Assembly: GCA_028286725.1 (NCBI GenBank)
Contig: JAQBQZ010000009.1
Coordinates: 1,408 to 65,407 of the forward strand
Reading direction: 5' to 3'
Length of the DNA: 64,000 nucleotides
From: Candidatus Tayloriibacteriota bacterium
GTDB lineage: Bacteria > Patescibacteriota > Minisyncoccia > Phycocordibacterales > CAIRYW01
The translations under genes and the position numbers were made by a program. How positions within the stretch are numbered: the stretch's first letter is position 1; each line of letters starts with the position of its first letter. Below are positions 28,210 to 48,935 of this stretch, piece by piece. The notes under the pieces are model-generated. The model was given only the letters and a program-made list of their open reading frames with translations. It made no database searches and was not told the DNA's origin.

Positions 28210-28416
28210 AGAAAGTGCTAAATGCACTTTTGGACAGGATTTGAAGCCCGATTGAGCATAATTTGTGAGGTATCGAAACAAATTATCCAATCGGGATATT
28301 GACCCTGTAAGGGTCGAATATCCTGTCTGATCGAACGGAGAGTAAGATATTTGTGATCAAATACTATCAATCTAGTCGAGGTCGAAACTCCTGTCCTGAT
28401 TTTTACTTCTTCTCTT

Positions 28417-31569: not shown

Positions 31570-31583
31570 CGTGTTTGTCTGAG

Positions 31584-31955
31584 TTAGTTGCTCCATCCTC
31601 CCGTTTGAGGATTGAATCCTGCGGAGTAACCTCCGCCCACCATGCCGTTTCCAACCGGGTAGATTGGCGACGGCTGGCGACGGACTTGCTGCTGGTTGTA
31701 GAAGTTGCCAAATCCGTTGAAACCATTGTTTCCAGAGTTCACAGGCATGCTGTTATTGCTGGGATAGTAGCCACGATTGGAGCCTGTGTTCACTGGGATG
31801 CGGGGAGCGTTATTGCCGGGATAGTAGCCACGATTGGAGCTTGTGACCACAGAACCACCTTGGCCGTAGCCGTAGTAGCGGTTGACGGTGCAGTTGCTGA
31901 AACCAGTGGCAACGAGGACAGCGAAGACGAGGCGGATGATGAGAGATGTTTTCAT
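31584..31955 (-). CDS. small secreted Gly/Tyr/Asn-rich repeat protein (123 aa)
   Basis: MKTSLIIRLVFAVLVATGFSNC signal, then internal repeats SNRGYYPGNNAPRIPVN / SNRGYYPSNNSMPVN. GC-rich codon usage. Confidence 0.45.
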   Translation of the reverse strand: MKTSLIIRLVFAVLVATGFSNCTVNRYYGYGQGGSVVTSSNRGYYPGNNAPRIPVNTGSNRGYYPSNNSMPVNSGNNGFNGFGNFYNQQQVRRQPSPIYPVGNGMVGGGYSAGFNPQTGGWSN

Positions 31956-31996
31956 GAGCTTGAGTTGGGTGGAGTTGTTGGAGTTACGCAAGCAGT

Positions 31997-32130
31997 TTGT
32001 TTCTGCGAGCGTGAAAATGAACCACATAAATGGACCATTTTCACGCTCGCTTTTCTCATTTTATCCTTATTTTGTTTGACGAATAGCTTTCAAAGAACCT
32101 TACTTAACTAGGATAAGTATACACCATATT
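31997..32130. repeat. about 130-bp module (copy 1) containing a perfect 14-bp inverted repeat. It is repeated at 33431-33535 upstream of a second secreted-protein gene.
   Basis: The hairpin is GCGAGCGTGAAAATgaaccacataaatggaccATTTTCACGCTCGC. The shared block GCTTTCAAAGAACCTTACTTAACTAGGATAAGTATACACCAT follows, then an AAAGTCAATACCCC... GC hairpin. Confidence 0.85.
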
Positions 32131-32237
32131 TAGGTAAAAGTCAATACCCCTGAATTTCATTGAAATTCAGGGGTATATAAAAAAAGAGACTCGCTAGGTG
32201 GGTACCATGCGAGTCTCTTCGTAGTTGAAGCCAGATG

Positions 32238-33368
32238 TTAGTTCGGACGGATGTTGAACCGGGATGACCCAGACGACGCAGACTGGCGTTTCGCTCCTGC
32301 CTGTGCTGCAAGTGCTGCTTGGATGTCTGTCCGATCCTGAGCCTTGAGCTTACCATTTGCGGCGAACCGCGTAAGGTATTCCCGCTGAGGATCAGTCAGA
32401 TTTCCATCCAAAGTGGCCTGGAAGGCAGCAATGCTGTTTTCGACAGCCTTGATGTCTTGAGGGCTTGCACCCCCTGCAGCACGTGCTGCGTCCAAATCAT
32501 TCTGACCCTTCTGAACGAAACTCCGCATAGCTGTGCGCCATTGAGACTCATTGCCGTTGTCGGCAACAGCAAGACCTTCGGGCTGGCGGCTAAAGATAGA
32601 GCTTCCCGGATATTGCTTCCGTTCTGCTGCATCAGTAACGGCTTGGATTGAAGGCACTGCGACAGCGACTGGAACTGGCTGTTGTTGGCGAAGCACAAGA
32701 GCTTTTTCGAGCTCAAGAACTTTTGCTTCAGAAGCTTCCAGCTTGCCCTTGGCTTCATCACGCTCCTTGCGGGCGGAATCGGCTTGGGAACTGTAGAGAT
32801 CAGCATTTTTCGCTTTGTCGGCGAGAGACTCCAGCTGTTTCGCATGAGTCTCAGCTTCACTCAGCTTCTTAGCAGTGTCAACCTTCTCCTTGATGGCGTC
32901 GGTTGTGGACTTGTCGGCAAGCGTGAGCTTGCTTTCCAATTCCTGCTTCTTGCTCTCGGCAGCCTTGATATCAGCCTCGAGCTTCTGCATCTTCTTTCCG
33001 TCCTCGATGCGGCCCTCGTTGAGAGAGGCCACAGTCTGCTGATACCCCAAATTTTCTTTGGAGAGCTTCTCCATCTTGGAGTTGCCGTTGCCGCCGAAGA
33101 TGAGGCAGAACAGGAGGATAAGGAGTGCAGCAGCTTCGGCCAAGATGATGATGCCCTTGGTGCGACCTCTTTGGGCCGCGTTCCGAGTGGCACAGTCTTT
33201 GCCTTCAGTGCGAGCTTCTTCCACCTCATCGAGGTGAATCTGGATCACATTCTCCGGATCCTTGCTGACCGCTTCGATGAGCAGCGTACTGCTGTCGAAC
33301 GGACCGGGAGCCGGTGGTGGTGTGTTGGTTGGAGCTGGAGTGCGTGTTGGTGGGGTGTGTGTGTTCAT
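32238..33368 (-). CDS. membrane-anchored coiled-coil protein (376 aa) in GC-rich island
   Basis: Pro-rich N-terminus and one TM (GIIILAEAAALLILLFCLIFGG). A long Lys/Glu/Ala-rich coiled-coil follows (KLEADIKAAESKKQELESKL...). GC-rich codons. Plus-strand ORFs overlapping it are judged spurious. Confidence 0.5.
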   Translation of the reverse strand: MNTHTPPTRTPAPTNTPPPAPGPFDSSTLLIEAVSKDPENVIQIHLDEVEEARTEGKDCATRNAAQRGRTKGIIILAEAAALLILLFCLIFGGNGNSKMEKLSKENLGYQQTVASLNEGRIEDGKKMQKLEADIKAAESKKQELESKLTLADKSTTDAIKEKVDTAKKLSEAETHAKQLESLADKAKNADLYSSQADSARKERDEAKGKLEASEAKVLELEKALVLRQQQPVPVAVAVPSIQAVTDAAERKQYPGSSIFSRQPEGLAVADNGNESQWRTAMRSFVQKGQNDLDAARAAGGASPQDIKAVENSIAAFQATLDGNLTDPQREYLTRFAANGKLKAQDRTDIQAALAAQAGAKRQSASSGSSRFNIRPN

Positions 33369-33430
33369 ACGGGTGGGATGTGTTGCATTTTGACGGAATT
33401 GACATCACGGATCACAAAGGGGTTTTGTCC

Positions 33431-33535
33431 TTGCGAGCGTGAAAATGAACCACATAAATGGACCATTTTCACGCTCGCAGTACTAACATTTGGCTTTCAA
33501 AGAACCTTACTTAACTAGGATAAGTATACACCATT
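33431..33535. repeat. second copy of the 14-bp-IR leader/promoter module
   Basis: The 46-nt hairpin and the GCTTTCAAAGAACCTTACTTAACTAGGATAAGTATACACCAT block are identical to those at 31997-32130. The AAAGTCAATACCCCTCCTACCGcacGGTAGGAGGGGT hairpin follows. Confidence 0.85.
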
Positions 33536-33606
33536 TTATCACAAAAGTCAATACCCCTCCTACCGCACGGTAGGAGGGGTATTTTGACCTATTTTATCTC
33601 TATTTC

Positions 33607-34995
33607 TTAAGCTATAATCCCCTTTCGAGCAAGATTATCTCTCTTGAACTTTGCGATCATTTCTCGCTGGGTCATACCGAGCTTGGCTGCTTTCTTCTTC
33701 AAGAATACCCACGCCATAAATGCTGACCAAAGTGTCATACCGAGTACGAAAAGGATCATTTTGAGGTTCTCTCCTACTCCTGTATATGGAATATCACTAA
33801 GATATACTCCAGAGGCAAGTGTTCCGTTGTTTGGTGTATTACCACCGTTACTTACGAGAGTAATATTGCCGTTGTTTCCACCTACATATACATTACATGT
33901 CTGTGTGACTGACTGACCACCTCCATCAGTTATTCGTACTGTCGCAGACTTTGTTCCACTCGTGCTAAACGATTGAGTTACAACTGATCCGTTACCATAT
34001 ACATCTCCTGACCACTGATAGTTATAGTTACTACCATTTCCGCCGTTTGCATTAGCTGTGAATGTAGCAACATTATTACCAGATACACTTGCAGAACAGT
34101 ATCCAGAAAGTGATTGGTTGTAGTTGTTGTTAACCTGAGTACTACAATTTCGTGTGATTGACTGACCGTTTGAAGTGATAGTTACAGTTGCAGATTTTGT
34201 TCCTCCGTTGTAGTAAGTATTTGAAACACTAGAACCATTACCATATGCATCTCCTGACCAACTATATGTATATCCTCCATTTCCACCTGTAGCATTAGCT
34301 GTCCAAGTAACAGTCTGGTTTGTCCCATATGATCCACTTGCAGTACATGAACCCTCCAAAGTATTTGTATTTTGCGCTACCTGGTTTGTAACTACGTTAC
34401 AGTTTCCCTGTCCTGCACAAGTGTTGTTCGTATTAGTGACCGTACTTGTATAGTTATAGTTAGTATTAGTTTTATTGCTTAAGAATGAGAGTGAAGAATT
34501 TCCTCCGTAACCACCACCGTTATTGTATCCACTATATCCACCTCCAATTCCTCCATATGAGTATGGCATTACGTAACCAGAAGAGTATCCGTATGATGAT
34601 GACTGAGGATATCCATATGAAGAGTATCCGTATGAAGGAGATGAGTAACCAGTCGAATAAGGTTGACTGTAAGAATCAGAATATCCATAGTTACTTGAAG
34701 GATAGTAGTCGTAACCAGTATCGTACCCATAATTACTTGAAGGGTAATAGTCGTAAGACGAATCAGCCGCATAGTTACTTGATGGATAGTAGTCGTATGA
34801 TGAACCACTTGAGTAATTACTTGAAGGGTAATAGTCGTAAGACGAATCAGCCGCATAGTTACTTGATGGATAGTAGTCGTATGAACTTCCTTCATCTGCC
34901 ATTACAGCAGTCGGAACTACCAAGATCGCCATAGAAGCAACAACAAAAAGTGCTGTTATTACCCTATATTTGATTGTGTTTATAATGTTTTGCAT
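33607..34995 (-). CDS. secreted low-complexity surface protein with PKD-like domains and a conserved C-terminal IPYTG-TM-basic tail module
   Basis: Signal peptide, then 5x SSYDYYPSSNY tandem repeats. There are two YxYxWSGDxYGNGS...GTKSATVxIT PKD-like modules. The C-terminus SGVYLSDIPYTGVGENLKMILFVLGMTLWSAFMAWVFLKKKAAK...AKFKRDNLARKGIIA is paralogous to that of 44439..45653. Confidence 0.7.
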   Translation of the reverse strand: MQNIINTIKYRVITALFVVASMAILVVPTAVMADEGSSYDYYPSSNYAADSSYDYYPSSNYSSGSSYDYYPSSNYAADSSYDYYPSSNYGYDTGYDYYPSSNYGYSDSYSQPYSTGYSSPSYGYSSYGYPQSSSYGYSSGYVMPYSYGGIGGGYSGYNNGGGYGGNSSLSFLSNKTNTNYNYTSTVTNTNNTCAGQGNCNVVTNQVAQNTNTLEGSCTASGSYGTNQTVTWTANATGGNGGYTYSWSGDAYGNGSSVSNTYYNGGTKSATVTITSNGQSITRNCSTQVNNNYNQSLSGYCSASVSGNNVATFTANANGGNGSNYNYQWSGDVYGNGSVVTQSFSTSGTKSATVRITDGGGQSVTQTCNVYVGGNNGNITLVSNGGNTPNNGTLASGVYLSDIPYTGVGENLKMILFVLGMTLWSAFMAWVFLKKKAAKLGMTQREMIAKFKRDNLARKGIIA

Positions 34996-35130
34996 AAATT
35001 TGTTTATTTATTTTTATAGGGTAATTATACACCCTTAGATTCATATTGTCAAGTGTTCTATTTACATAATAAAAATAGTGTTGTTTTAAAAGGATGCGGG
35101 CGGTACAAAGTACCGCCCGCGAAGGATGAC

Positions 35131-35511
35131 TCAAGGTCGATGTGCGTAAAGCACTTGCACCTCATCTCCCACGAGTCTCAGGACAAAGTGGCCCGATTCT
35201 GTGGCTTCTTCCACCGTCATTCCCCTGCTTTCAGGGATACGAATGCGTCCAGGGATCATATCTAATCCCGTTTTTGGTTCAGCGAGAATCAGATTGCCGG
35301 AGCGGTTGCGTGCAAAGACGAGTTTGCCCTCCTGGAGTGCCTGACGATAGGTTATTTGATGACCACCATAGGTCCGATCGAGTGGAAAGATTTCTCCATC
35401 GAGGATTTTGGGGTTGATTTGAGGCCGGGATTGAGGTTGAGGTTGAAGAGAGTTGCACGATGACAGGAAGCCTGCCACCACCAATAGAGCGATGCGAATG
35501 AGCGAGTTCAT
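35131..35511 (-). CDS. small lipoprotein (GC-rich), function unknown
   Basis: MNSLIRIALLVVAGFLSSC lipobox signal and a 126-aa mature product. The start is taken at the internal Met of ORF 35131..35550. Confidence 0.45.
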   Translation of the reverse strand: MNSLIRIALLVVAGFLSSCNSLQPQPQSRPQINPKILDGEIFPLDRTYGGHQITYRQALQEGKLVFARNRSGNLILAEPKTGLDMIPGRIRIPESRGMTVEEATESGHFVLRLVGDEVQVLYAHRP

Positions 35512-35601
35512 AACGACCTCCATAAAACCACAAAATGGAGTAAAAAGCAAGGCATCGCGGCTACGCCGCGATGCCTTTTGAAATATTCAATATTCTTTGC
35601 T

Positions 35602-36417
35602 TTATAGATAGTCCTTCACCTCATCAACCAAAAGCTTCGCATTCACAAACACTGGAGATGATTCTGTCTCGCTCGCCTTCTTTTCAAATGCGATAAGATT
35701 GCCTCCTGTATCAAAGAGAAGCCATCCTGATATTGGAGTTGTGAGAATCATATCAGTCACGAGAATGTTTTTTGTGCTTGATGCATTTTCGTCTGCAGAT
35801 TTTATTTCTGTCACGATTCCTGTTGAGACCACATCACCACTTTCTTTGCCTCCGAGTGCGACGATGTTGCTGCCAAGCTTGATGCCCGTAATACTTTTCA
35901 AAACAAGTGTTGGTATTTTGTTCTTCTCGCCTTGGGCATACTGCAGAGTAAAGACTGCAAAATTATTTGAAAGCCCCGACTTTTCAAACTTGAGAGGGAT
36001 CTCCTTGCCTGCAGAAGTCACAGCTGTGAATTGATGTTCCGGAAGTACTGACTCTGGGAGAGACGATGCGAGTACAGCATTCTTGCTTCCGATGGCAAGT
36101 CCGAGCGCGATGAATTGTTTTGTCTCACCAATAGTCTCATAGATTCGAACAAGACTATCAGACTTTTGGTCTGCAATATCAGCAGGTGAAAGCTCAGTCA
36201 CAGTCGGAGTCTTCACTTCTGGAGTACCAACAATATTTTTGACAGTTGGAATATCTGCAACTCTATCAATCGTCTTTTCGATCACCTGATAGATAGTCTG
36301 ATCTGGCCCAGAGCTGTTGTCTGTGAGTGACACTGTTGCGACACTCGTTGTCACCGCAGTCACGATCGCGACAAGAAGACAGACGAGGATGAGTTGTTGT
36401 TTAGTTATTTGTTCCAT
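35602..36417 (-). CDS. membrane-anchored trypsin-like (S1C/Do-like) domain protein, possibly catalytically degenerate
   Basis: N-terminal TM, then a C-terminal region VALGGKESGDVVSTGIVTEI...TDMILTTPISGWLLFDTGGNLIAF. It resembles the GNSGGPL C-terminal beta-barrel of the S1C fold, but no clear His/Asp triad is seen. Confidence 0.35.
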   Translation of the reverse strand: MEQITKQQLILVCLLVAIVTAVTTSVATVSLTDNSSGPDQTIYQVIEKTIDRVADIPTVKNIVGTPEVKTPTVTELSPADIADQKSDSLVRIYETIGETKQFIALGLAIGSKNAVLASSLPESVLPEHQFTAVTSAGKEIPLKFEKSGLSNNFAVFTLQYAQGEKNKIPTLVLKSITGIKLGSNIVALGGKESGDVVSTGIVTEIKSADENASSTKNILVTDMILTTPISGWLLFDTGGNLIAFEKKASETESSPVFVNAKLLVDEVKDYL

Positions 36418-37613
36418 TGGAGTAATAATACCTTTTTCAAAATTTTAAGACAATCATCGATTTCACTCTTTGTAGTATATCGTCCGAGTGAAAATCGAAG
36501 AGACGAGGCTGCGCAAGAGCGGTCACCATAGATTCGTTCGAGTACATATGAGTATGATTCCTCGCTTGTATTCATACAAGTTGATGCGGATGAACATGCT
36601 ACCCCATTTTCATCAAGACCGATCACTGCAAACTCTGCATCGATATCTGGAATACAGACATTCACATTATTTGGCAGTCGACTAATGAGTGCTCCATTTA
36701 TTTTTGCATTTGGAATCATCTTAGTGATTTCTTTAAAGAAATAGTCTCGAAGCTTTGTGAGCCTCACCACCTCTTTATTCATTTCCTTTTTTGCGATTGT
36801 GAAGCTTTCCGCAAATCCATGCGCAAGGATCGGAAGCTCTCGTCCTGAACGGAGCCCTTCTTCTTGTCCTCCGCCAAAAATAATCGGACTTATATTTACT
36901 CCTCTTCTTTTATATAGAAGCCCAATACCTGCTGGTCCATATATCTTTGGACTATGAAGCGTCAGGAGATCCACTCCAACCTTTTCCATATCGATAGGTA
37001 CATACGTCACTGACTGCGCAGCATCGGTGTGAAAATAGGGTGTGCCAGGTATTGCCATTCCAAGTTTTCTCCGCGCGTGCCGAACCTCTCGAGCAATCTC
37101 CTCAATATCATTTATTGTTCCGATCTCGTTGTTTGCATGCATAATCGTCACAAGCATTGTTTCTGACGTTAAGGATTTGCGAATTATTTTGTAAGGCAAG
37201 GTTCCATCTTTTTCTGGATCAATGTATGTTACCTTCACTCCTTTAGATTCAAGGTGTTTCAATACTTCAAGCACCGATTTATGTTCGATCGATGAAGAAA
37301 TAATATGCGGAGTCTTCCCTTTCTTTTTGTATTCATCCTTAAGAGATTCATAGAGACCGAGTATCGCAAGATTGTTTGACTCTGTCGCACCTGAAGTAAA
37401 TATGATCTCATCGGATTTTGCGCCGAGATTATTTGCAAGACTTTTTCTTGCATTCTCGTAGACCTTTTTTGCATTTCTTCCCTCTTCATGAAGCGCGTTT
37501 GGATTACCAATACAAAGCTTTTCAATCTTTTTCATCGAGAGAGACACCTTTGGATCAACAGGAGTCGACGAGGTGTAGTCGAGATAGATCCGTTTTTTTG
37601 CTCTTTTATTCAT
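36405..37613 (-). CDS. iscS: cysteine desulfurase (class V aminotransferase, IscS/NifS family)
   Basis: IYLDYTSSTPVD N-terminus, PLP-lysine region SPHKIYGP and C-terminal active-site Cys region. 402 aa. Confidence 0.85.
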   Translation of the reverse strand: MNKRAKKRIYLDYTSSTPVDPKVSLSMKKIEKLCIGNPNALHEEGRNAKKVYENARKSLANNLGAKSDEIIFTSGATESNNLAILGLYESLKDEYKKKGKTPHIISSSIEHKSVLEVLKHLESKGVKVTYIDPEKDGTLPYKIIRKSLTSETMLVTIMHANNEIGTINDIEEIAREVRHARRKLGMAIPGTPYFHTDAAQSVTYVPIDMEKVGVDLLTLHSPKIYGPAGIGLLYKRRGVNISPIIFGGGQEEGLRSGRELPILAHGFAESFTIAKKEMNKEVVRLTKLRDYFFKEITKMIPNAKINGALISRLPNNVNVCIPDIDAEFAVIGLDENGVACSSASTCMNTSEESYSYVLERIYGDRSCAASSLRFSLGRYTTKSEIDDCLKILKKVLLLQWNK

Positions 37614-37661
37614 AATTATATATATACCACATACTCCACACTATTCAAGCAACTTTGAAAA

Positions 37662-39200
37662 ATGTCAATTTGGTGCTATTATGTTGCCTTATATATGTCA
37701 AAGGATCAATCTCAAAAAAATAGACCTCCAGTAGTCGCCGTCATGGGTCATATTGACCATGGGAAGTCTACTCTTCTCGACCATATTCGAAAGACCAATA
37801 CAACAGATCGTGAGGCCGGAGGTATTACACAGAGAATGAGTGCCTACAAAGTAAGTCGTAAAAATGCAGAAGGAAGTGATGTTACAATCACATTCCTTGA
37901 TACTCCAGGACACGAAGCGTTTGGTGCGCTCAGATCACGAGGCGCGAAAGTCGCAGATATTGCGATCCTTGTTGTTGCAGCTGATGAAGGCGCAAAGCCA
38001 CAAACAATCGAAGCATACAAATGTATCAAAGAAGCAGGACTCCCATTCATCATCGCGATGAATAAGATAGACAAGCCGAACGCAAATATTGATCGAACAA
38101 AACAAATGCTCGGAGATGCAGAAATATTCGTTGAAGGCTGGGGAGGAGATATTCCAGCGATCGGTGTATCAGCTATTACAGGCGCAGGTGTTCCTGAGCT
38201 TCTTGATATGGTACTTCTCCTTGCTGATATTACGGATCTCAAAGCAGATATGGACGGAGCATCTGACGGCGTTATCATCGAAGCTCAAAACAGCAAACTC
38301 AAAGGTATCGGCGCGACAATTATCATCAAAAACGGAATCCTCAAATCAGGATCATTTGTTGTTGCAGGTGACGCAATCGCTCCAACACGAATCTTTGAAG
38401 ATTTCCAAGGCAAACCGATAAAAGAAGGTCATCCAAGCGATCCTGTTCGGATCACTGGATTCGACAAACTCCCTCCTGTAGGAGAAATCTGTGTAAGTGT
38501 TGAAACCAAAAAAGATGCGGAAGCTCTTGCAATGCAAAATAGAGAATTTATGGCAAAGATCGAAGGAGCCGTAACTATTGGAAGTGAAAATGCGACTGTT
38601 GCAATTCCTATCATCATCAAAGCCTCATCAACCGATGTTATTGAAGCAATCATGCACGAGATGAAGAAGATCAAAAATGAACGAGTATGTCTCAAAGTAG
38701 TTTCAACTGGCATTGGTTTTGTTTCAGAGAACGATGTAAAGATCGCAACAACAAAACCTGACAGTGTGATCCTCGGATTTGATACAAAGATCGATAACGG
38801 CGCAAAGACGCTTGCAGAGAGAGATAAAATAAATATCCAGACATTTGATATTATCTACAAGCTTACAGAATGGCTAGAAGTTTATATGAAGGAGAAGACT
38901 CCGAAGATGAAAGAAGAAGAAATTCATGGAAAAGCGAAGATCCTCAAATGTTTTAGTGTAAACAAAGATAAGCAAGTGTTGGGAGCAAGAGTTGAAGAAG
39001 GAATGATCTCTCTTAATGATGAGGTCAAGATCATAAGACGAGATGTTGAGCTTGGTCGTGGACGAATCAGACAGCTCCAGCAATCAAAGACAGAAGCCAA
39101 GGAAGTGAAAGAGGGGCTTGAATGCGGAACAATGATCGAATCAAAGATCGAGATCGCTCCAGGAGACAAAATTGAAAGTTTTAAAATAGTAGAAAGATAA
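37662..39200 (+). CDS. infB: translation initiation factor IF-2 (short N-terminus)
   Basis: G-domain VAVMGHIDHGKSTLLD...DTPGHEAF...NKID, followed by beta-barrel domains. The likely start is MSKDQ at 37698. Confidence 0.9.
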   Translation: MSIWCYYVALYMSKDQSQKNRPPVVAVMGHIDHGKSTLLDHIRKTNTTDREAGGITQRMSAYKVSRKNAEGSDVTITFLDTPGHEAFGALRSRGAKVADIAILVVAADEGAKPQTIEAYKCIKEAGLPFIIAMNKIDKPNANIDRTKQMLGDAEIFVEGWGGDIPAIGVSAITGAGVPELLDMVLLLADITDLKADMDGASDGVIIEAQNSKLKGIGATIIIKNGILKSGSFVVAGDAIAPTRIFEDFQGKPIKEGHPSDPVRITGFDKLPPVGEICVSVETKKDAEALAMQNREFMAKIEGAVTIGSENATVAIPIIIKASSTDVIEAIMHEMKKIKNERVCLKVVSTGIGFVSENDVKIATTKPDSVILGFDTKIDNGAKTLAERDKINIQTFDIIYKLTEWLEVYMKEKTPKMKEEEIHGKAKILKCFSVNKDKQVLGARVEEGMISLNDEVKIIRRDVELGRGRIRQLQQSKTEAKEVKEGLECGTMIESKIEIAPGDKIESFKIVER

Positions 39201-39201
39201 T

Positions 39202-39537
39202 ATGATCCCCAAAGACCCAAATAGAGACAAAAAAATAGAAGAAGTGATCAAAAAATGCGCTACCAAGTTTCTCTTGGAAGAAGGTTCTAACGCTTCCCTT
39301 CTTACCGTTACTAATGTGATCGTGTCAGCAAAGTTTGAGCAAGCAACGATCTTTTTTACCGCATTCCCAGAAAACAAAGAAAAGACTGCACTTGAATTTT
39401 TGAAGCGAAAGCGAGGAGAATTCAAAGAGATCCTAAAAAATGAAACAAGACTACAAAGAATTCCGTTTATAGACTTTGAGATTGATATAGGTGAAAAGAA
39501 CAGACAGAATATCGAAAGACTTTCAAATCAAATATAA
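39202..39537 (+). CDS. rbfA: ribosome-binding factor A
   Basis: LLTVTNVIVSAKFEQATIFFT...LQRIPFIDFEID matches the RbfA KH-like fold consensus. Conserved infB-rbfA order. Confidence 0.8.
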   Translation: MIPKDPNRDKKIEEVIKKCATKFLLEEGSNASLLTVTNVIVSAKFEQATIFFTAFPENKEKTALEFLKRKRGEFKEILKNETRLQRIPFIDFEIDIGEKNRQNIERLSNQI

Positions 39538-39610
39538 TTTAAAATCTCTACGAATTCAGGCTTCGCGGGGATTTTTTATTTCCAACAAGCGAGGTGAAAA
39601 GCGAATACAT

Positions 39611-39675
39611 GGAGCTTTGCAAGACCTTTTGAGATCGTACTCGATCCAAAAGGTGTACAGTTCCTGTAAGGAAAG
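39611..39675. repeat. copy R3 of the dispersed hairpin repeat family
   Basis: GGAGCTTTGCAAGACCTTTTGAGATCGTACTCGATCCAAAAGGTGTACAGTTCCTGTAAGGAAAG. Confidence 0.7.
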
Positions 39676-39880
39676 CGTGGACGAGTACTCTCGTACACAG
39701 CGTCCGAGTCGCACTACAAGAGTACTTCTTATTTTCTAACTCACTTCGTTCATAAGAAAATAATGTCGAGTTGGAATATAGGGTTAATACCCGAAGCGAT
39801 GCCGAAGGTCAAAAGTATGAGCGGAGCGAATTTACCTCGTGAGCTCTGCTCCGAGGTCCTTTATATGATATAATTTTGAA

Positions 39881-40774
39881 ATGAAACAATCTAAAACAAA
39901 TTTTACAATCGCAATATTATTAGCGCTTATTTTTATTGGAATTAATGCAAATATTACGAAAGGTGCGGCTGCCGCAATCCTGACACTTGAAAGTGTTGGA
40001 TCGATCGATAGCCAAATCACTGTATATGGTGATCCTTATGGTGCCGTTGAACTTCACTATGGTAATGGTGGAGTAGTGACTCTCGGTAGTACAGATCAAA
40101 ATGGTTATCTTCGAATGGCGGTAAATACAGCAAGCTACAATATTGCCTGCGATCAGACTGCGTACGCGCTCGTAAATGGTCAAAGAACTGCAACAATCCG
40201 ATGGTCAAAGCCAGACGCACTTACTTGTGACAAAACCGCAAGCACAAATGGAATCTCTTTCAGTCAGAACAATATCGTGATGACGATCGGTCAAAGCAAA
40301 TCGATAACAATAAATGGAACAGGAGGATACTCTGTAACCAATAACTCAAGTCCGGTCATAAGCAGCACAATTACAAGCAGCACCTTGAATCTCATCGCGA
40401 ATGGATTTGGAGGAACGAGTATCACAGTCTGTGACAATAGCTCAAGATGCGGAACATTGTACGTGGTCGCAGTGAATGCAAGCGATATTCAAAACGTGAG
40501 CATTAATCAATGTGTGACACCAACGACAAATACCACAACTTCAACTACACCGACTAAATTTGTATTTACAAAACTTCTAGAGATGGATTCAATAGGAACC
40601 GAAGTGACAGAACTTCAGAAAAAACTAACAAACCTTGGATTCTATGCCGGCCCTGTGACTGGAAAGTTTGGACCACTTACAGAGACCGCTGTTAAAAAGT
40701 TTCAAAAAGAATATAAGATCACTCAAGCTGGATATGTTGGTCCGTCTACAAGAGCGAAGCTGAATCAACTCTAA
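39881..40774 (+). CDS. secreted protein with C-terminal PG_binding_1-like domain
   Basis: Signal peptide and a Thr/Ser-rich beta-rich ectodomain. The C-terminus LQKKLTNLGFYAGPVTGKFGPLTETAVKKFQKEYKITQAGYVGPSTRAKL matches the peptidoglycan-binding domain pattern. Confidence 0.7.
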   Translation: MKQSKTNFTIAILLALIFIGINANITKGAAAAILTLESVGSIDSQITVYGDPYGAVELHYGNGGVVTLGSTDQNGYLRMAVNTASYNIACDQTAYALVNGQRTATIRWSKPDALTCDKTASTNGISFSQNNIVMTIGQSKSITINGTGGYSVTNNSSPVISSTITSSTLNLIANGFGGTSITVCDNSSRCGTLYVVAVNASDIQNVSINQCVTPTTNTTTSTTPTKFVFTKLLEMDSIGTEVTELQKKLTNLGFYAGPVTGKFGPLTETAVKKFQKEYKITQAGYVGPSTRAKLNQL

Positions 40775-40826
40775 AGCTGGTAAAAAGTCTCAAAAAAATG
40801 TAAACTGTCACCAGTCCTAAAATATT

Positions 40827-40899
40827 GGTGTAGTGGCGAAGTGGTTAACGCGGCAGTTTGCAAAACTGTTATGCGCCGGTTCGATCCCGGCCTACACCT
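40827..40899 (+). tRNA. tRNA-Cys (anticodon GCA)
   Basis: Acceptor GGTGTAG/CTACACC, anticodon stem-loop GCAGT-TTGCAAA-ACTGT and T-loop GGTTCGATCCC. Confidence 0.75.
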
Positions 40900-40952
40900 C
40901 AATAAAAAGCAGCGCTTTTTAGGTATAGATTCCCGGTCGTATATATAAAATT

Positions 40953-41035
40953 GCCCGGGTGATGTAATGGTAGCCATAGGGGACTTAAAATCCCCAGGTC
41001 GCAAGACCGTGCGGGTTCGAGTCCCGCCCCGGGCA
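40953..41035 (+). tRNA. tRNA-Leu (anticodon TAA), long variable arm
   Basis: Acceptor GCCCGGG/CCCGGGC, anticodon stem-loop GGGGA-CTTAAAA-TCCCC, variable arm GGTCGCAAGACC and T-loop GGTTCGAGTCCCGC. Confidence 0.8.
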
Positions 41036-41090
41036 CAAAATACAAAAGACTTCAGAAATTTTTCTGAAGTCTTTTGTATTTTGTGCCCGG
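41029..41090. repeat. 62-bp perfect palindrome overlapping the tRNA-Leu(TAA) 3' end
   Basis: CCGGGCACAAAATACAAAAGACTTCAGAAA / TTTCTGAAGTCTTTTGTATTTTGTGCCCGG. Followed by GAAAGTGCtaaacaCACTTTC and GAGGCGGGACTCGAA (inverted T-arm copy). The arms share GGGCACAAAATACAAAA with the locus at 24667. Confidence 0.85.
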
Positions 41091-41286
41091 AGAAAGTGCT
41101 AAACACACTTTCGAGGCGGGACTCGAAAAGGTTCTCCCATATTTTTGAGAATGTAATCATTTGAGAAAATGGGAAACCTATACGACATTGTTTTCTTATG
41201 ACTGAAAGGAATTAGAAAACAAGAAGTACTCTTGTGGTGCTGCGGCTGTAAGCCGAGAGTTCCGGTAAGGACCGAGTTCCCGTCCC

Positions 41287-41694
41287 TTACTTAAACCCCT
41301 CCACAACCAACCCCTTTATCTGATCTCTCACAACCGCACTTACTTCATAGCCCATTTTGTAAGGATCAACAATATCCCAAAAAATGAGTTTCTTATTTGC
41401 TTTAATATAATCTGGAATTTTTGATTCTTTTTCCAAGATAACAACGACATCAAAATCAGCTAGCATGCTCGGATCAAAAACAGTTCTTGTATTATCACTC
41501 ATATCGACACCCTCTTCTCTCATCGCCCGAATAACATCTTTAGCTTCTTCTTTATCTCCAATTCTTTGTCCAGGAATACTTACATTAAATCCAGCAGAGG
41601 AAACTTCATATTCAGGATGAAGTTTTTTTAAAAACATTTGAGCCATCTGGCTTCGTCCCACATTTCCACCGCATACAAAGAGAACTTTTTTCAT
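41287..41694 (-). CDS. low-molecular-weight phosphotyrosine phosphatase / ArsC-like family protein
   Basis: N-terminal CX5R P-loop VLFVCGGNVGRSQMAQ. 135 aa. Confidence 0.7.
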   Translation of the reverse strand: MKKVLFVCGGNVGRSQMAQMFLKKLHPEYEVSSAGFNVSIPGQRIGDKEEAKDVIRAMREEGVDMSDNTRTVFDPSMLADFDVVVILEKESKIPDYIKANKKLIFWDIVDPYKMGYEVSAVVRDQIKGLVVEGFK

Positions 41695-43001
41695 TAATTT
41701 AATATTTTTTTCAATTCCTCCCTCACCACATTCCGATCATCCCAAGGAATTGATATGCCACCAATAATCATTGACTGCTCTGCACCTTTGCCAGTGACCA
41801 TCACTACATCGCCCTCCTTGGCGATCTCAAAGCACTTTCGAATACCCTCTCGCCTATCTTCAATCACAAAAAGATTTTGCCCTCGAACTTTACCTACTTG
41901 TAGCGATGCTTTGGCAATATCCTCAACAATAGGTGTTGGATCATCCTCATACGGATCTACATTGGACACCACAACCACATCAGCAAGCCTGCCTACGATT
42001 TCACCCATAATCGCTCGCTTACCCTTGTCCCGTCCTCCACCCTCGGCGCCAAGAAGCATAATTGATTTTCCATTTTCACCTTTAAGTGTATTCGCCGTTT
42101 CTGTTGCATAAGTCATACTCTCCTTTTCGTGAGCATAATCTACAAACACTCTAAAGTTCTGTCCTTCTTTTATTTCTTCCATTCGTCCCGGAATAATACT
42201 CAAGTGCTCGATCGCTTTTTTTGCTCGCTCGTGACCAATACCAAAGAGTTTGCCGACAACGATCGCAGGCAATGCATTATAGACATTAAATGTTCCCGGG
42301 ATTGAAATTGAATATTTATGATTATGTAATTCAAAATCAACACCGTTTTTGCTCGGAGTAATATTCTCTGCTTTGTTTTGGCTTTGAAGATTAATACTGA
42401 ACGATTCTTTATTATCTGCATCAAACGATAAATAGTATGATGAATGTTCACTGTCAGTATTTACAATAATTGTTTTTGGAAACTCCTTTCCTTTAAACAT
42501 TTTTTTCTGTGATTTACTTAAACGCTCAAAAAGCTTACCTTTCATATTTTTATAATTATCAAATGTCTTATGGGCATCAATATGCTCTGGAGTAAGGTTC
42601 GTAAATATTGCAATATCATAATCAATCCCGATATGACGATATTGAGCAATACCTTGTGATGTTGTTTCAACGATCGCACATTCACAATCCTCAGATACCA
42701 TTCGTCGAAGGAATTTTTGGATAACAAATCTTCCAGGCATTGTCATATGAAAAGGATTCAATAATTCTTCATTACCGATTCGGACATTTGCAGTGGTAAT
42801 GATCCCTGTTTTTATACCGCTTTGATTCAACACTGACCAAATAAAGTTAATGGCGGAAGTCTTGCCTTTTGTTCCAGTCACCCCAATCACAATCATTTTC
42901 TTTGAAGGGAATCCGTATACAAAAGATGCAAAAAGTGCAGTCAGATAATGATAGTAAGAGAAAAATTTCTGTGGAACTATTTTTCTAATTAAAGATTTCA
43001 T
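41694..43001 (-). CDS. Mur ligase family protein (MurE-like UDP-N-acetylmuramoyl-peptide ligase), N-terminal TM
   Basis: ATP-binding P-loop VIGVTGTKGKTS and the Mur_ligase middle and C-terminal domains (TFNVYNALPAIVVG). Which amino acid is added cannot be told from sequence alone. Confidence 0.7.
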   Translation of the reverse strand: MKSLIRKIVPQKFFSYYHYLTALFASFVYGFPSKKMIVIGVTGTKGKTSAINFIWSVLNQSGIKTGIITTANVRIGNEELLNPFHMTMPGRFVIQKFLRRMVSEDCECAIVETTSQGIAQYRHIGIDYDIAIFTNLTPEHIDAHKTFDNYKNMKGKLFERLSKSQKKMFKGKEFPKTIIVNTDSEHSSYYLSFDADNKESFSINLQSQNKAENITPSKNGVDFELHNHKYSISIPGTFNVYNALPAIVVGKLFGIGHERAKKAIEHLSIIPGRMEEIKEGQNFRVFVDYAHEKESMTYATETANTLKGENGKSIMLLGAEGGGRDKGKRAIMGEIVGRLADVVVVSNVDPYEDDPTPIVEDIAKASLQVGKVRGQNLFVIEDRREGIRKCFEIAKEGDVVMVTGKGAEQSMIIGGISIPWDDRNVVREELKKILN

Positions 43002-43002
43002 A

Positions 43003-44025
43003 TTAAATATATTTTTTAATTAATTTTCTTGTTATATAAACATAATACCAAAATGGCTTCAATACGAGATCATAGAGTGCCAGATGGTGAACTACTTCCC
43101 CTCCAAACTTCTGTTTAAAGGAACTCAAGCCCTGCCATTTTTTGTTTTCTTCTCCGACCGACACTGCGCCAAAATTATAATATTTTGCACCCATATCTTT
43201 TGCCTTGAGCATCGCATTAAAATGCGCAAGATATGGAGCACAAAGATCTTTATGCAAATCAGAAGATGCTCCAAATACATAGTGCGCTACATCACCTACA
43301 ACAAACACAACATGTGAGGCGAGACGTTCATTTTCATAAAAAGCTTCGATCAAAAATCCTTTGCCTGTCTTTTCAAGTTCTTCAAAATATTATTTGAAGT
43401 AATCATTATTATGTAGTGCGAATCCTTTTAGAACAGAGGTCTGCTTCATAAGTTCCAAAAAAGCTGGGAGTTTTTTTGCAAGATCCTTATCTATAAGAAC
43501 CGTTTTTATTCCTTTCTTTTCTGCAAGACGAACTGAGTAGCGAGTCTTTGAATGCATTGCACTCAGGATCTCTTCAGGGGTACCACTTATCGCTGTATAC
43601 CACTCGTCACGAGGCTGGAAATACGCACCAACAATTGAAGGGGGTAAGGACTCTGTAAAATATTTTTTGAGTGGAATAGAATTATTTGAATCAATAAAAG
43701 TAAAATCCAGTCTTACAAATGCCACATTATTTTTCTTCGCCCACATTGTGAGCCCACTTTTAATAGATAAAATAATTTCTTCTGATACATTAGAGAGAAT
43801 CGGGCCGTAGGGAGCATACCAGTATGTGAGACTTCTGAAGAGCGGATATTCAACAATAAGAACAGAACCAATAACACTTTTGTCATTTAAGATTTGAAAG
43901 TTCTTTATATTCCTACTCATTCTTTTCTGGATCAGGCCATAGGCAAAAGTCTGAGTTAAAGGAATATTTTGACCATTTACTTCCACAAAATCTTTTTCGT
44001 TTGTAATCTCTTTGAGGTGTATCAT
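43003..44025 (-). pseudogene. FemAB-family (FemX/MurM-like) peptidoglycan bridge aminoacyltransferase interrupted by an in-frame TAA
   Basis: ORFs 43390..44025 (N part, ...MHSKTRYSVRLAEKKGIKT) and 43003..43353 (C part, ...GLSSFKQKFGGEVV) are in the same frame. They are separated by a single TAA at 43390-43392, and translation continues sensibly across it (YFEELEKTGKGFLIEAFYENE...). Confidence 0.6.
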
Positions 44026-44114
44026 CGATCCTATTATACTATATTTTTCTGAGTGATCCGATTAGACATTTCTCTATTTTCTGGTATATTTCTAAGATAC
44101 CAAATATACGGCAT

Positions 44115-44188
44115 GCGTCCATAGCTCAGCTGGTAGAGCAGCTCCCTCTTAAGGAGACGGTCGTAGGTTCGACTCCTACTGGACGCAC
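44115..44188 (+). tRNA. tRNA-Lys (anticodon CTT)
   Basis: Acceptor GCGTCCA/TGGACGC, D-arm GCTCAGCTGGTAGAGC, anticodon loop CTCTTAA and T-loop GGTTCGACTCC. The anticodon identity is less certain (G-A at the top of the anticodon stem). Confidence 0.6.
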
Positions 44189-44245
44189 AAATAAAGAAAA
44201 ACCTCAGCAGATATCTGCTGAGGTTTTTCTTTATTTGTGCGTCCA
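44182..44245. repeat. 64-bp perfect palindrome overlapping the tRNA-Lys 3' end
   Basis: GGACGCACAAATAAAGAAAAACCTCAGCAGAT / ATCTGCTGAGGTTTTTCTTTATTTGTGCGTCC. Followed by the hairpin CAAGCgcggggcactTGCTTG and TAGGAGTCGAAC, an exact inverted copy of the tRNA T-arm GTTCGACTCCTAC. Confidence 0.85.
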
Positions 44246-44438
44246 AGCAAGCGCGGGGCACTTGCTTGTAGGAGTCGAACGGTTTGCATTGAGCTTGTAG
44301 TAACAAGCGAAGCGAAAACCGGTGACCAGAAAACTTCTGCGGGTAGCAGAAGTTTTCGAGGTCGACAAGCGTACTCACGGTCCAATTGGAATTAAAAATC
44401 CAGGAGTTCGGCTCCTGGATTTTTATTTTTTACGTTCG

Positions 44439-45653
44439 CTATCTAACTCCTTTTCTCCTCAAATTCTCCTTCTTAAACTCTTCAATTCTTTCTTTCATAG
44501 ACATCTTAGGATGTCCCGCAGGCTGTAGCATTCCTCTTTTAAGCATAAGAGCATATGCCATGAATGCACTCCAAATCATCATTCCAAGAATAAAGAAAAT
44601 CATCTTAAGATTCTCCTCTACTCCAGTGTAAGGAATTTGACTGAGATATACTCCCGATGCGCTTGTACCAATACTTGGAGTGTTGTAGTAAGTCGTATTA
44701 GTATTATTTCCATAATAGTAGTTACCATTACCTACAGTCACATAAAGATTGGCGCAGCTGCTGTAGTTGTAATTATTGCCAGATGAAACATTTGAAGAGC
44801 AGACAGTTATTGTTGCTGACCCAGGATTACGAGCGTACAAGTTAATCGTGTTACCATTTATGCTTGCATTCACAACATAAGAATCAGTACCGTTAGATGT
44901 ATAGTACACATTGTTTCCTCCGTAGATACTGACATTCGCACTCTGCCCCACAGTAAGTGAAATACTGCTTGGATTTATAGTGATCGGATTTGAGTTGTAA
45001 TTGTTGTTACCATTTCCATTTATTGTGACATAGAGAGTCGCACATCCATATCCAGATGAGTTTGCACAGACAGTTATCGTAGATGATCCTCCAGAACTAT
45101 TTGCAGAGAGATTGATTGTATTACCACTTACATATGCAGAGACAGCTCCTGAATTTGAGTTTGATGAAATATAGTATCCGTTACCGTTGCCTCCATTTAC
45201 GTTAACTGTTGCACTACCAAGCGAATTGATGTTGATGTTGTTTTGACTGAGATACACATTTCCACCATTGCTGTTTCCATTATTGCTGTAGTTTGGCCAA
45301 GTTTTTGCCTGAGATTGCTGACCATTTACTATCACATAAACTGATGATCCAGAAGGGATACTATAGTTGTAACTATTGAGAGTAGTATTTAGATTTCCTG
45401 AACTATCAGTTGTTCCAATGTTTGTCGATGAAGGATTTGATGCATTGTTCGGGTAGTAATAAAGCAAAACCTGCGCATTCGGGTCCGCATTAAGACTTAT
45501 TGATACGATGCTATTGTTACCGTTTGCAAGTGCAAAAGTAGGCGTAACAGCCGCTTTTACGCTCAAAAATGGCAAAAATAGAGCTATAATGGCAAAAACA
45601 CTGATAATTAAGGGGTATTTGTATGTATGTTTCATGATAAAACTAATTATCAA
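44439..45653 (-). CDS. secreted Asn/Gly/Ser-rich surface protein with conserved C-terminal IPYTG-TM-basic tail module
   Basis: Signal/TM N-terminus and a long low-complexity N/G/S/Y-rich region. The C-terminus SGVYLSQIPYTGVEENLKMIFFILGMMIWSAFMAYALMLKRG...EEFKKENLRRKGVR is paralogous to that of 33607..34995. A terminator hairpin lies at 44392-44425. Confidence 0.7.
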   Translation of the reverse strand: MIISFIMKHTYKYPLIISVFAIIALFLPFLSVKAAVTPTFALANGNNSIVSISLNADPNAQVLLYYYPNNASNPSSTNIGTTDSSGNLNTTLNSYNYSIPSGSSVYVIVNGQQSQAKTWPNYSNNGNSNGGNVYLSQNNININSLGSATVNVNGGNGNGYYISSNSNSGAVSAYVSGNTINLSANSSGGSSTITVCANSSGYGCATLYVTINGNGNNNYNSNPITINPSSISLTVGQSANVSIYGGNNVYYTSNGTDSYVVNASINGNTINLYARNPGSATITVCSSNVSSGNNYNYSSCANLYVTVGNGNYYYGNNTNTTYYNTPSIGTSASGVYLSQIPYTGVEENLKMIFFILGMMIWSAFMAYALMLKRGMLQPAGHPKMSMKERIEEFKKENLRRKGVR

Positions 45654-46169: not shown

Positions 46170-46487
46170 TTATCTTGTAGGTTTCAGAACTTTCTTCATA
46201 TCTTCCTTAGTTTGTGTATCCTGACCGAGTCCGAAAGTATTGATAGAAATCTTGACTATCGTAAATGCCATAAACATAAGCGCCATTCCAATAATTCCCC
46301 AAAGTATTCCGTTAGCCCCTTTTGCTCTAACCTCTGGATTATCAGCCCCAGTTATATAAGCTCGCACTCCCCACAAAAATGCAACGAGTGCAAACGTAAA
46401 CATAAGAACAATAAGCGGGTTCACAATGACCCCGCTTATGTTCTCAATTAATTTATCTGCGGCGGCTGATGCTGCAATATTGTTCAT
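46170..46487 (-). CDS. two-TM small membrane protein, member 1 of a 7-gene paralog array (VirB2/TrbC-type T4SS pilin-like)
   Basis: 105 aa with two hydrophobic helices separated by a short charged loop (ITGADNPEVRAKGANGILWGIIGMALMFMAF). A terminator hairpin follows at 46139-46165. Confidence 0.55.
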   Translation of the reverse strand: MNNIAASAAADKLIENISGVIVNPLIVLMFTFALVAFLWGVRAYITGADNPEVRAKGANGILWGIIGMALMFMAFTIVKISINTFGLGQDTQTKEDMKKVLKPTR

Positions 46488-46489
46488 AG

Positions 46490-46819
46490 TTATCTAGTGA
46501 CCGCACCTGAAGCTGGACCTATTGCCTTAGGAATATAGTCTGGAGCAATTGTACTTGTTCCACCGCTCTGGAAGAATGTCTTTGAGAGAATGTTTACAAA
46601 TCCCCAAACTGAAACCATCACGAAAAGCGCAATGATACCGAAAATGATCATACCTCGCGCAGCCGCTCGCTTCTCTTCGTCTCCTCCTGCAGTCACGAAC
46701 TGTACGATACCAATGAGAAACAAAATGAGTCCGATTGAAATGATCAAAGGGATCAAACCGTTCATGAAGTTAGTAATAGATGTGAGACTAGAACCGATAC
46801 TTGAAAAATCCAGATTCAT
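46490..46819 (-). CDS. two-TM pilin-like protein, array member 2
   Basis: 109 aa. Core motif FVTAGGDEEKRAAARGMIIFGIIALFVMVSVWGFVNILSKTFF is shared with members 3-5. Confidence 0.6.
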   Translation of the reverse strand: MNLDFSSIGSSLTSITNFMNGLIPLIISIGLILFLIGIVQFVTAGGDEEKRAAARGMIIFGIIALFVMVSVWGFVNILSKTFFQSGGTSTIAPDYIPKAIGPASGAVTR

Positions 46820-46925
46820 AAATTAATTTATTAATTATTAATATTAAACGTAGAACTAATTATACCCTCGAAGCGTTACGGATTGCAATAGCAAGGTGGA
46901 AAACCTCATTAAAATTTCAAATCAA

Positions 46926-47495
46926 TTATCGCGAAATCTCATTACCCGAATTCGCAGAAAACTGGATTGATTGCTGCTGAGCTGGGGCACTAATGCTACC
47001 AGTACTTATTGATTGTGTTGGAGCTGCACTAATAGGAGTATTTACACCTCCAGCATCTTGAGCGCCAGAACAAGTTGTTGAAAAAACTTTATCATCACTA
47101 CTATTGAATTGAGGTATCACAAGCTGCAACCCAAAACTATTTGTAAATAATCCCAATATTCCCCAGATCGAGACCATAAAGAAAAATCCGAGTATCCCAT
47201 AGATCATCATCTTGCGCCCTTCACTCATCTTTTCACTATCATCTCCATGACTTACATATTTGATGAGTCCTTGAATAAAAGCACCGAGCGCAATAACAAC
47301 AAGATAAGGTATGAAATCGAGAGCAAGCTTTACAACAATACAGACAAGCTGGCTAAAATTCTGGGGCGCTGACGGTATCGTGCTCGAAAACATTGAATTA
47401 TCATCAGCATAAACAAAAACTGCATTTATAAGAACAAGAACCGCTACAAGTAGAAGATAATATGGTTTTTTCATCCCGTTAGAAAAGATTAGCAA
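46926..47495 (-). CDS. two-TM pilin-like protein, array member 3
   Basis: 189 aa with signal/TM and core YVSHGDDSEKMSEGRKMMIYGILGFFFMVSIWGILGLFTNSFG. Confidence 0.6.
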   Translation of the reverse strand: MLIFSNGMKKPYYLLLVAVLVLINAVFVYADDNSMFSSTIPSAPQNFSQLVCIVVKLALDFIPYLVVIALGAFIQGLIKYVSHGDDSEKMSEGRKMMIYGILGFFFMVSIWGILGLFTNSFGLQLVIPQFNSSDDKVFSTTCSGAQDAGGVNTPISAAPTQSISTGSISAPAQQQSIQFSANSGNEISR

Positions 47496-47583
47496 TTGCC
47501 TCTAATAAATTTTTATACTTTACATTCATGTGTTTTTGCAGATTTAGATTTTGTAAATAGTCTGCTTTTCTAACGGGACAGGC

Positions 47584-47937
47584 TTATTGTTGTAGTTTTG
47601 GTAAATAATTAGGTATTCCAAAATTCTGTCCAAAGAATGACTGAGTAAGAATGTTTACAAATCCCCAGATTGAGACCATCACAAAAAGAATAATAATTCC
47701 GTAGACCATGATCTTTCTTCCTGCCGACCTCTTCTCCGCATCATCTCCTGCACCGAGAAATCGAAGCACACCCGTCATAAATGTAATGACGGCAATGAGG
47801 ATGAGGGTTGGAATAAGCCCCATAAGATTCCCTACAGAAAAGTTTGTGAATATCTGATTAGCAGTATCAGGTGTTGTATTATCTGCCAACACAAGTGCCG
47901 GGGCGAAAGTGATGATAAATAAAAGAGCTTTTTTCAT
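47584..47937 (-). CDS. two-TM pilin-like protein, array member 4
   Basis: 117 aa with a signal peptide and core FLGAGDDAEKRSAGRKIMVYGIIILFVMVSIWGFVNILTQSFFG. Confidence 0.6.
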   Translation of the reverse strand: MKKALLFIITFAPALVLADNTTPDTANQIFTNFSVGNLMGLIPTLILIAVITFMTGVLRFLGAGDDAEKRSAGRKIMVYGIIILFVMVSIWGFVNILTQSFFGQNFGIPNYLPKLQQ

Positions 47938-47938
47938 A

Positions 47939-48505: not shown

Positions 48506-48530
48506 TTATTAATATTAAATATTTATACAA

Positions 48531-48908: not shown

Positions 48909-48935
48909 AGTTTAATTATACGATAATTACACTGA

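Follow-up and report, generated by a model that had tools for sequence, protein, structure and literature searches.

Two surface proteins with a shared C-terminus

The window considered here is a 64-kb stretch of DNA from contig JAQBQZ010000009.1, which carries, among others, the genes for GyrA, TopA, ClpB, SerRS, FtsA, FtsZ and signal peptidase I. The best named relatives of the SerRS were metagenome-assembled genomes of Patescibacteria, Paceibacterota and Zambryskibacteria, and the source genome is a member of the Candidate Phyla Radiation (CPR) of the Parcubacteria/Paceibacteria type. Two genes on the minus strand of the window encode surface proteins, here called protein A and protein B, which end in a common module composed of an IPYTG pentapeptide, a transmembrane helix and a basic cytoplasmic tail. 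This module, its family and the sortase linked to it are the subject of this study. The features of the two proteins are as follows.

33607..34995 (-), protein A, 462 aa: signal peptide, SSYDYYPSSNY-type Tyr/Ser repeats, two PKD-like repeats, C-terminal module
34897..34995 (-), protein A, predicted Sec signal peptide, aa 1-33: hydropathy peak at aa 12-30, putative cleavage site between AVMA and DEG read from the sequence
33610..33813 (-), protein A, module, aa 395-462: SGVYLSD-IPYTG-VGENLK, transmembrane helix, then KKK...FKRDNLARKGIIA; detected by BLASTP, profile search and hidden Markov model (HMM, E 5e-28)
33778..33792 (-), protein A, IPYTG pentapeptide, aa 402-406: presumed sortase cleavage between T405 and G406
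33700..33759 (-), protein A, transmembrane helix MILFVLGMTLWSAFMAWVFL, aa 413-432: Kyte-Doolittle 2.12, with the conserved F, W-S and Y/W positions
33619..33648 (-), protein A, C-terminal cytoplasmic motif FKRDNLARKG, aa 450-459
44439..45653 (-), protein B, 404 aa: signal peptide, N-terminal beta-rich domain, two Big_2/Ig-like repeats, C-terminal module
44442..44657 (-), protein B, module, aa 333-404: SGVYLSQ-IPYTG-VEENLK, transmembrane helix, then KR...FKKENLRRKGVR; detected by BLASTP and HMM (E 6e-25)
44622..44636 (-), protein B, IPYTG pentapeptide, aa 340-344
44541..44603 (-), protein B, transmembrane helix MIFFILGMMIWSAFMAYALML, aa 351-371: Kyte-Doolittle 2.06
44448..44477 (-), protein B, C-terminal cytoplasmic motif FKKENLRRKG, aa 393-402

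When the two proteins were compared by BLASTP, residues 388-460 of A aligned with residues 326-403 of B at 56% identity and 72% positives (E 4e-27), while no second significant segment was obtained and the remainder of both proteins could not be aligned. This confirmed the sequence-only reading of this DNA, which had noticed a homologous C-terminus of about 75 residues in two otherwise unrelated-looking proteins. The same reading had described the ectodomains as different and of low complexity; they are different, given that no mutual alignment was found, but not only of low complexity, as weak Pfam matches to PKD_4 in A and to Big_2 in B correspond to PKD-like and Big_2/Ig-like repeats. In the six-frame translation of the whole window, IPYTG was found twice, once in each protein. 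An exact database look-up of protein A returned no record.

Hydropathy analysis showed two hydrophobic spans in each protein, one N-terminal (aa 12-30 in A and aa 14-32 in B) and the other the C-terminal transmembrane helix; the former, together with the AxA-like sites that follow, is predicted to be a secretion signal in both. The possibility that A and B are tail-anchored membrane proteins was ruled out by the N-terminal signal-like span and by the PKD-like and Ig-like ectodomains. The pentapeptide is separated by 6 residues from the C-terminal span of 20-21 residues (Kyte-Doolittle 2.06-2.12), and the tails that follow measure 30 residues in A and 33 in B, both with FK(R/K)(D/E)NLxRKG. At the DNA level the two modules carry many synonymous and third-codon differences, and for the invariant Ser in 'WS' one gene uses TCA and the other AGT, indicating that the similarity is old and has been kept by selection rather than arising from a recent copy.

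The module family and its linked sortase

An exhaustive profile search of 1.84 billion cluster representatives recovered 315 cluster representatives carrying the module at E<=1e-3, among them 71 at E<=1e-10, and the 151 family representatives returned by the search were used for column and tail statistics. The consensus of about 70-75 residues reads S-G-V-[YF]-L-S-[QD]-[IVL]-P-x-T-G, followed by 6 residues, a transmembrane segment LFxLGLxxWSAxxAY, a KRK cluster and FKxxN[LM]xxKKG. An [ILVMF]PxTG pentapeptide stood in register in all 151 representatives, with P, T, G and also L-3 conserved at 100%, whereas the third position of the motif was free, being Y in 65% and A in 23% and otherwise including D, S, E, N, F and H. 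The upstream residues [SA]-G-V-[YF]-L-[SN]-[QDE] were nearly invariant in the family (V-5, 91%; G-6, 73%), as was Y+27 of the helix; K+10 (84%), F+14 (90%), W+21 (93%) and S+22 (95%) were also strongly conserved, and a basic cluster occupied +31 to +33 of the alignment. Invariant P, T and G around a free third residue are the hallmark of LPXTG-type signals, and with the helix and basic residues that follow they bear out the earlier suggestion that the module is sortase-like.

Curated annotation did not cover the family: Pfam and NCBIfam gave no match to the module of A or B, and all database names met for family members were 'hypothetical protein'. A word-indexed homology search with the 75-aa module returned one near-identical fragment only, such an index being poorly suited to so short a query. 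A pattern scan of one genome per species across 185,579 species yielded 21 module loci; all taxonomically labelled ones belong to Patescibacteria, and several genomes carry two.

The extent of selection on the module was evident from protein A and its homologue P0002, in which the modules are 88% identical without a gap while the ectodomains are 50% identical with 69 gapped positions, showing that the tail is clearly under selection. Had a gene fragment without dedicated function recently been duplicated or transferred inside this genome, the presence of just two copies in the window would be in keeping with that. This is, however, almost certainly not the explanation, because the two copies share 56% amino acid identity with many synonymous and codon-family DNA differences, the module recurs in 315 clusters across diverse Patescibacteria, and it is better conserved than the ectodomains.

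At 3 of the 21 genome module loci (L008, L009 and L023), a sortase gene lies directly upstream on the same strand. A reverse scan of metagenome contigs with the sortase alignment alone gave 57 loci (L024-L080), in which module open reading frames (ORFs) were sought afterwards with the module HMM. The recurrent arrangement is a three-gene cassette of a divergent CARDB-domain membrane protein, an unclassified sortase and a module surface protein.

L008, 6174-10963: three-gene cassette
L009, 5332-10972: three-gene cassette
L023, 4971-10078: three-gene cassette
L024-L080: loci of the reverse scan, in which the cassette recurs

Among loci with at least 4.5 kb of sequence downstream of the sortase, a module ORF followed on the same strand in 19/21, or 16/18 after sortases at least 90% identical had been collapsed; with at least 3 kb the counts were 22/25 raw and 19/22 de-duplicated, and with at least 2 kb 27/32 and 24/29. 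Three long sortase loci without a module were genuine exceptions. The median pairwise identity of the sortases was 51%, indicating that their linkage with the module persists across deep divergence. The divergently transcribed CARDB-domain gene, which usually precedes the sortase, was found at 35 of the 57 loci. The proposal that a lineage-specific sorting system exists was thus borne out by the 315 clusters and by a distinct Patescibacteria sortase clade immediately upstream in most loci, and with further carriers and a co-occurring processing enzyme both present, neither of the two outcomes that would have refuted it applies.

The linked enzymes matched Pfam Sortase PF04203 with E-values of 1e-17 to 1e-22 (63-80 bits vs a cutoff of 26.6). 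Their catalytic residues H151, C218 and R227 are invariant, the Cys lying in a TLxTC-like LT[LI]STC motif, and they possess an N-terminal transmembrane anchor with a conserved cytoplasmic/transmembrane N-terminus, FLDLVWxYK...IGGVPxEL. None passed the class A-F models (NCBIfam NF033745-NF033748 and TIGR01076): the best class scores were 18-43 bits vs cutoffs of 140-166, with class D highest (43 vs 165) and class C reaching 30-32 vs 160, and TIGR01076 scores were 34-38 bits vs a cutoff of 39.35. Compared with sortase classes A-F, the linked enzymes are alike in their Pfam Sortase match, N-terminal anchor and His/Cys/Arg triad, but differ in falling below the class cutoffs, in their conserved N-terminus and in a cassette that includes the divergent CARDB gene. 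Sortases and 'sortase motifs' have been noted in CPR bacteria in general terms before (PMC6744442, PMC5220378), and more than half of CPR genomes encode a sortase family (PMC6744442). No description of the extended module, its tails, the cassette or PYTG/VPYTG/IPYTG signals was found in the searchable literature.

The cassette substrates span three kinds of tail, namely short, with a cytoplasmic domain, and of the FKxxNxxKKG type seen in the window, the last occurring in L061, L068 and L070. The first two of these loci also encode substrates with the architecture of protein A, in which Tyr-rich repeats precede two PKD-like repeats. In L068 a YkuD-type L,D-transpeptidase gene (8520-9836, minus strand, Pfam E 3e-10) is situated between the sortase and the protein-A-like substrate, and the corresponding ORF of L061 (9276-10052, plus strand) contains 'SHGCVRL', matching 'SHGCIRL' of L068 at the level of the motif. 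If both ORFs hold, these cassettes would include a second peptidoglycan transpeptidase.

With the sortase encoded beside its substrate, as for pilus sortases, and with SpaA/prealbumin-fold domains in several operon substrates, the module proteins might be pilin-like subunits, in which a class C-like sortase joins PxT to a lysine of the next subunit to polymerise a sortase-type pilus. This is very unlikely. A regex scan of limited sensitivity detected the YPK motif and canonical E-box in 0/155 module proteins including A and B, each cassette contains a single substrate gene, the class C score is far below its cutoff, and the window proteins are PKD-like and Big_2-like rather than SpaA-like.

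Wall anchoring, cytoplasmic tails and the weighing of readings

Further genes in the window bear on cell-wall attachment.

39881..40774 (+), paralogue of the protein B ectodomain (35% identity over 197 aa, E 3e-18) ending in PG_binding_1 (E 1e-17) instead of the module
41694-43001 (-), Mur ligase (Pfam), which together with the FemAB gene lies directly downstream of protein B
43003-44025 (-), FemAB-family peptidoglycan branch-forming gene (Pfam), between the Mur ligase gene and protein B

The paralogue amounts to a natural anchor swap: with PG_binding_1 standing in its place, the module holds the position of a device for attachment to the wall. In Firmicutes, the peptidoglycan branch used as sortase acceptor is made by FemAB enzymes, and the FemAB gene of the window may likewise supply the sortase nucleophile. 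It carries a single in-frame TAA at 43390-43392, beyond which FemAB-like sequence resumes in the same frame; pseudogene formation, a sequencing error or splitting of the gene could each explain the stop. Two giant surface proteins of 1353 and 2160 aa with homologous N-termini are encoded at 6399-10460 (-) and 10519-17001 (-), the larger with dozens of Cys-containing units, each of 26 residues, repeated at a period of 78 nt ('GCTDSSANNYNSSANTDDGSCTY'). As read from the sequences, the C-termini of both resemble the PG_binding_1 of the ORF at 39881-40774, and the two proteins may represent an alternative, non-covalent style of wall anchoring in the same genome.

We favour the reading, with a probability of about 0.72, that the C-terminus common to A and B serves as an extended sorting signal for the cell wall, recognised by a Patescibacteria-specific sortase clade. 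Each protein would be exported by its N-terminal Sec signal until the transmembrane helix and the KRK cluster stop transfer, leaving the ectodomain outside and the tail of 30-33 residues in the cytoplasm. The [IVL]PxTG motif, about 6 residues above the membrane, would then be within reach of the membrane-anchored sortase with its His-Cys-Arg residues, which would cleave between T and G and pass the ectodomain to an amine of a peptidoglycan precursor. The flanking G-V-[YF]-L-S-Q, K+10, F+14 and W-S at +21/22 may act as extra recognition or docking determinants for the sortase, and FKxxN[LM]xxKKG as a retention, docking or clearance element of the precursor or of the leftover membrane peptide. 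On this reading, a CPR sortase would be expected to cleave peptides of the GVYLSQVPYTGVGEN type and SGVYLSQVPYTGVGEN. The family itself, its invariant motif, the features of topology, the neighbouring sortase gene and the anchor swap are observed, whereas cleavage, the acceptor and the parts played by flanks and tail are inferences.

The known system most similar to the module is the LPXTG signal (PF00746, TIGR01167). In both, a protein that starts with a signal peptide carries towards its C-terminus a pentapeptide whose P, T and G are invariant and whose third position is free, followed by a short spacer, a hydrophobic span of about 20 residues and basic residues; ectodomains of Ig-like, PKD or SpaA repeats and, in relatives of A and B, gene linkage to sortase are shared as well. 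The module differs in its first position (I/V/L) and in x being mostly Y or A, in seven near-invariant upstream residues and fixed transmembrane positions (K+10, F+14, W-S+21/22 and Y+27), and in a tail of 30-35 residues ending in FKxxN[LM]xxKKG, or in a folded domain of 75 or 190 residues in relatives. PEP-CTERM/exosortase, GlyGly-CTERM/rhombosortase and PGF-CTERM/archaeosortase likewise combine a motif, a transmembrane segment and a basic cluster on many unrelated surface proteins of one lineage; unlike these, the module has PxTG as its motif, and the linked enzyme is a sortase-fold cysteine transpeptidase and not a polytopic exosortase or a rhomboid. Consistently, the NCBIfam tag models for exosortase, rhombosortase and archaeosortase gave no match for A or B.

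The tails of the family are diverse. The window-type tail, [IL][EA]xFKxxN[LM]xx[KR]G, forms the very end of the protein in 83 of the 151 representatives, behind a linker that varies in length, and a canonical short basic tail was found in 13. Roughly one third of the family carries instead a domain of about 75 residues ('IEDYARxNKVLLSSxA...') or one of about 190 residues that opens with the same 75. A representative of the latter is listed below.

L009, 7769-10972, C-terminal ~190 aa: long-tail cytoplasmic all-helical domain after the transmembrane helix (also in P0152; alignment A5)

Alignment-based AlphaFold modelling of the 190-residue domain gave a predicted local distance difference test score (pLDDT) of 90 and a predicted template modelling score (pTM) of 0.77, while a single-sequence model of P0077 had a pLDDT of 42. 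The best PDB fold matches were domains II-III (lid and collar) of the clamp-loader gamma, tau and delta subunits, with E 1e-5, probability 1.0 and a query TM-score of 0.45. Sequence homology to DnaX was not supported (hhalign probability 0.6%, and no PDB-sequence or Pfam matches), and the similarity is a fold resemblance only. The resemblance is a lead rather than evidence of membership, and raises the idea that a sortase substrate may carry, on its cytoplasmic side, a helical domain that oligomerises.

Several observations weigh against the sorting-signal reading. No sortase gene is present within the 64-kb window, and 18 of the 21 genome module loci have none within 10 kb, which fits a single shared sortase but does not prove it. 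The curated anchor models PF00746 (Pfam) and TIGR01167 (NCBIfam) did not match A or B at E<=1. The tails of A and B, although basic residues follow the helix, end in a conserved motif and are unlike the short, positively charged canonical tail of about 5-12 residues; they are 3-6 times longer than in canonical sorting signals and under strong purifying selection, and given the 88% module vs 50% ectodomain identity, such conservation is unexpected for a piece that is merely discarded. The tail domains of about 75 and 190 residues, in roughly one third of the family, count in the same direction. Finally, cleavage at the T-G bond and an amide bond to peptidoglycan are predictions for every member of the family.

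Some of these points favour a permanent type-I membrane anchor, in which PxTG would be a structural or recognition element, the tail would bind a cytoplasmic partner and the sortase would act at most on operon-encoded paralogues. Strong conservation of the helix and tail, the folded cytoplasmic domain (pLDDT 90) after the helix in many relatives, the lack of a sortase in the window and the absence of a PF00746/TIGR01167 match all agree with it. It is nevertheless unlikely, because a motif that keeps P, T and G but leaves x free is the signature of sortase substrates, canonical short-tailed members occur within the same family, and a module gene stands beside the sortase at 16 of the 18 de-duplicated loci, among them genes for window-type tails and for the long cytoplasmic domain. 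Moreover, no recurrent partner gene was found next to non-operonic members, whose neighbours represent housekeeping synteny (TsaE, PolA, HolA, PilB, RuvB and YebC). The sequence-only reading had taken the long tail as pointing to a retained anchor and not to a discarded signal; this was not upheld, as the same tail type occurs in the sortase cassettes L061, L068 and L070, so that a long tail is no exemption from the sortase link, and 13 of the 151 representatives are short-tailed.

What the tail does under the sorting-signal reading is speculative. It might dock to the cytoplasmic/transmembrane N-terminus of the sortase, retain the protein until processing, or mark the leftover peptide for clearance. 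For the last idea, window-type tails ending in Ala were counted in 27 of 83, with a largely nonpolar xxA ending in 20 of those 27.

A possible, though doubtful, extension is that cleavage serves as a switch: severing the ectodomain would leave a membrane-tethered cytoplasmic piece that signals, oligomerises or is degraded and thereby reports surface display. The severed piece may be the FKxxNxxKKG peptide in the window proteins, or the folded domain of 75-190 residues in relatives. As Hall et al. are said to have reported in 2019 (Sci Signal), the leftover C-pep of streptococcal sortase A substrates is sensed by an intramembrane two-component system, a precedent for an informative membrane fragment after sortase cleavage. 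The streptococcal fragment is short and not conserved as a family, whereas the module fragment is conserved over hundreds of clusters and can be a folded domain. If the switch were real, it would amount to a family-wide, hard-wired form of 'C-pep' sensing that couples the surface proteome to the cytoplasm in host-attached organisms.

Neighbouring elements and significance

GC-rich islets (52-55% vs a background of about 40%) at 31400-33560, 35131-35550 and 4403-5122 include stretches on both sides of protein A. Small proteins that look secreted or like lipoproteins, with lipobox-like 'GFSNC' and 'FLSSC', are encoded there together with a coiled-coil protein rich in Pro/Thr, and no Pfam matches were obtained for any of them. 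Small GC-richer genes for secreted proteins or lipoproteins also flank the protein-A-like gene in L061 and L068; homology of the islet genes to those inserted between the sortase and the protein-A-like gene at these two loci was rejected, none being detected. Composition-biased proteins, a genomic island or an assembly chimera are possible origins of the islets. A repeat of about 160 nt at 31996-32151 and 33424-33558, with 91-95% identity, precedes the GC-rich minus-strand genes 31584-32027 and 32238-33368, and contains a perfect 15-bp hairpin, GCGAGCGTGAAAATG...CATTTTCACGCTCGC, without an Rfam match; a promoter, operator or leader common to both genes is a possible role.

A run of seven small proteins with two transmembrane segments each is encoded at 46170-49439 (-), with a common 'G.D.E.....G......G......MV..WG' core; one of them matches Pfam T4SS_pilin, and the run is followed by a solute-binding protein gene, as a typical CPR pilin-like array. 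The Rfam scan of the window detected tRNAs only. A long conserved hairpin, CCCGGGCACAAAATACAAA ... TTTGTATTTTGTGCCCGGG, occurs directly after tRNA-Leu genes and near tRNA-Tyr, at 24649-24750, 41010-41111 and 28191-28230 (repeat families D9 and D10). The ORFs antisense to tRNAs (24487-24840, 40771-41160 and 44034-44378) are probably spurious.

Patescibacteria/CPR account for a large share of bacterial diversity. Attachment to other cells is considered to be their way of life, and nearly all of their surface proteins bear the annotation 'hypothetical'. An HMM-searchable module together with its cognate sortase cassette allows the wall-displayed surface proteome to be listed in many Patescibacteria genomes, and hundreds of protein clusters become annotatable through the module. 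In addition, the constraint on the transmembrane helix and tail and the fusions to folded domains suggest that a function can reside in the 'discarded' part of a sortase substrate, which would extend the textbook sorting model.

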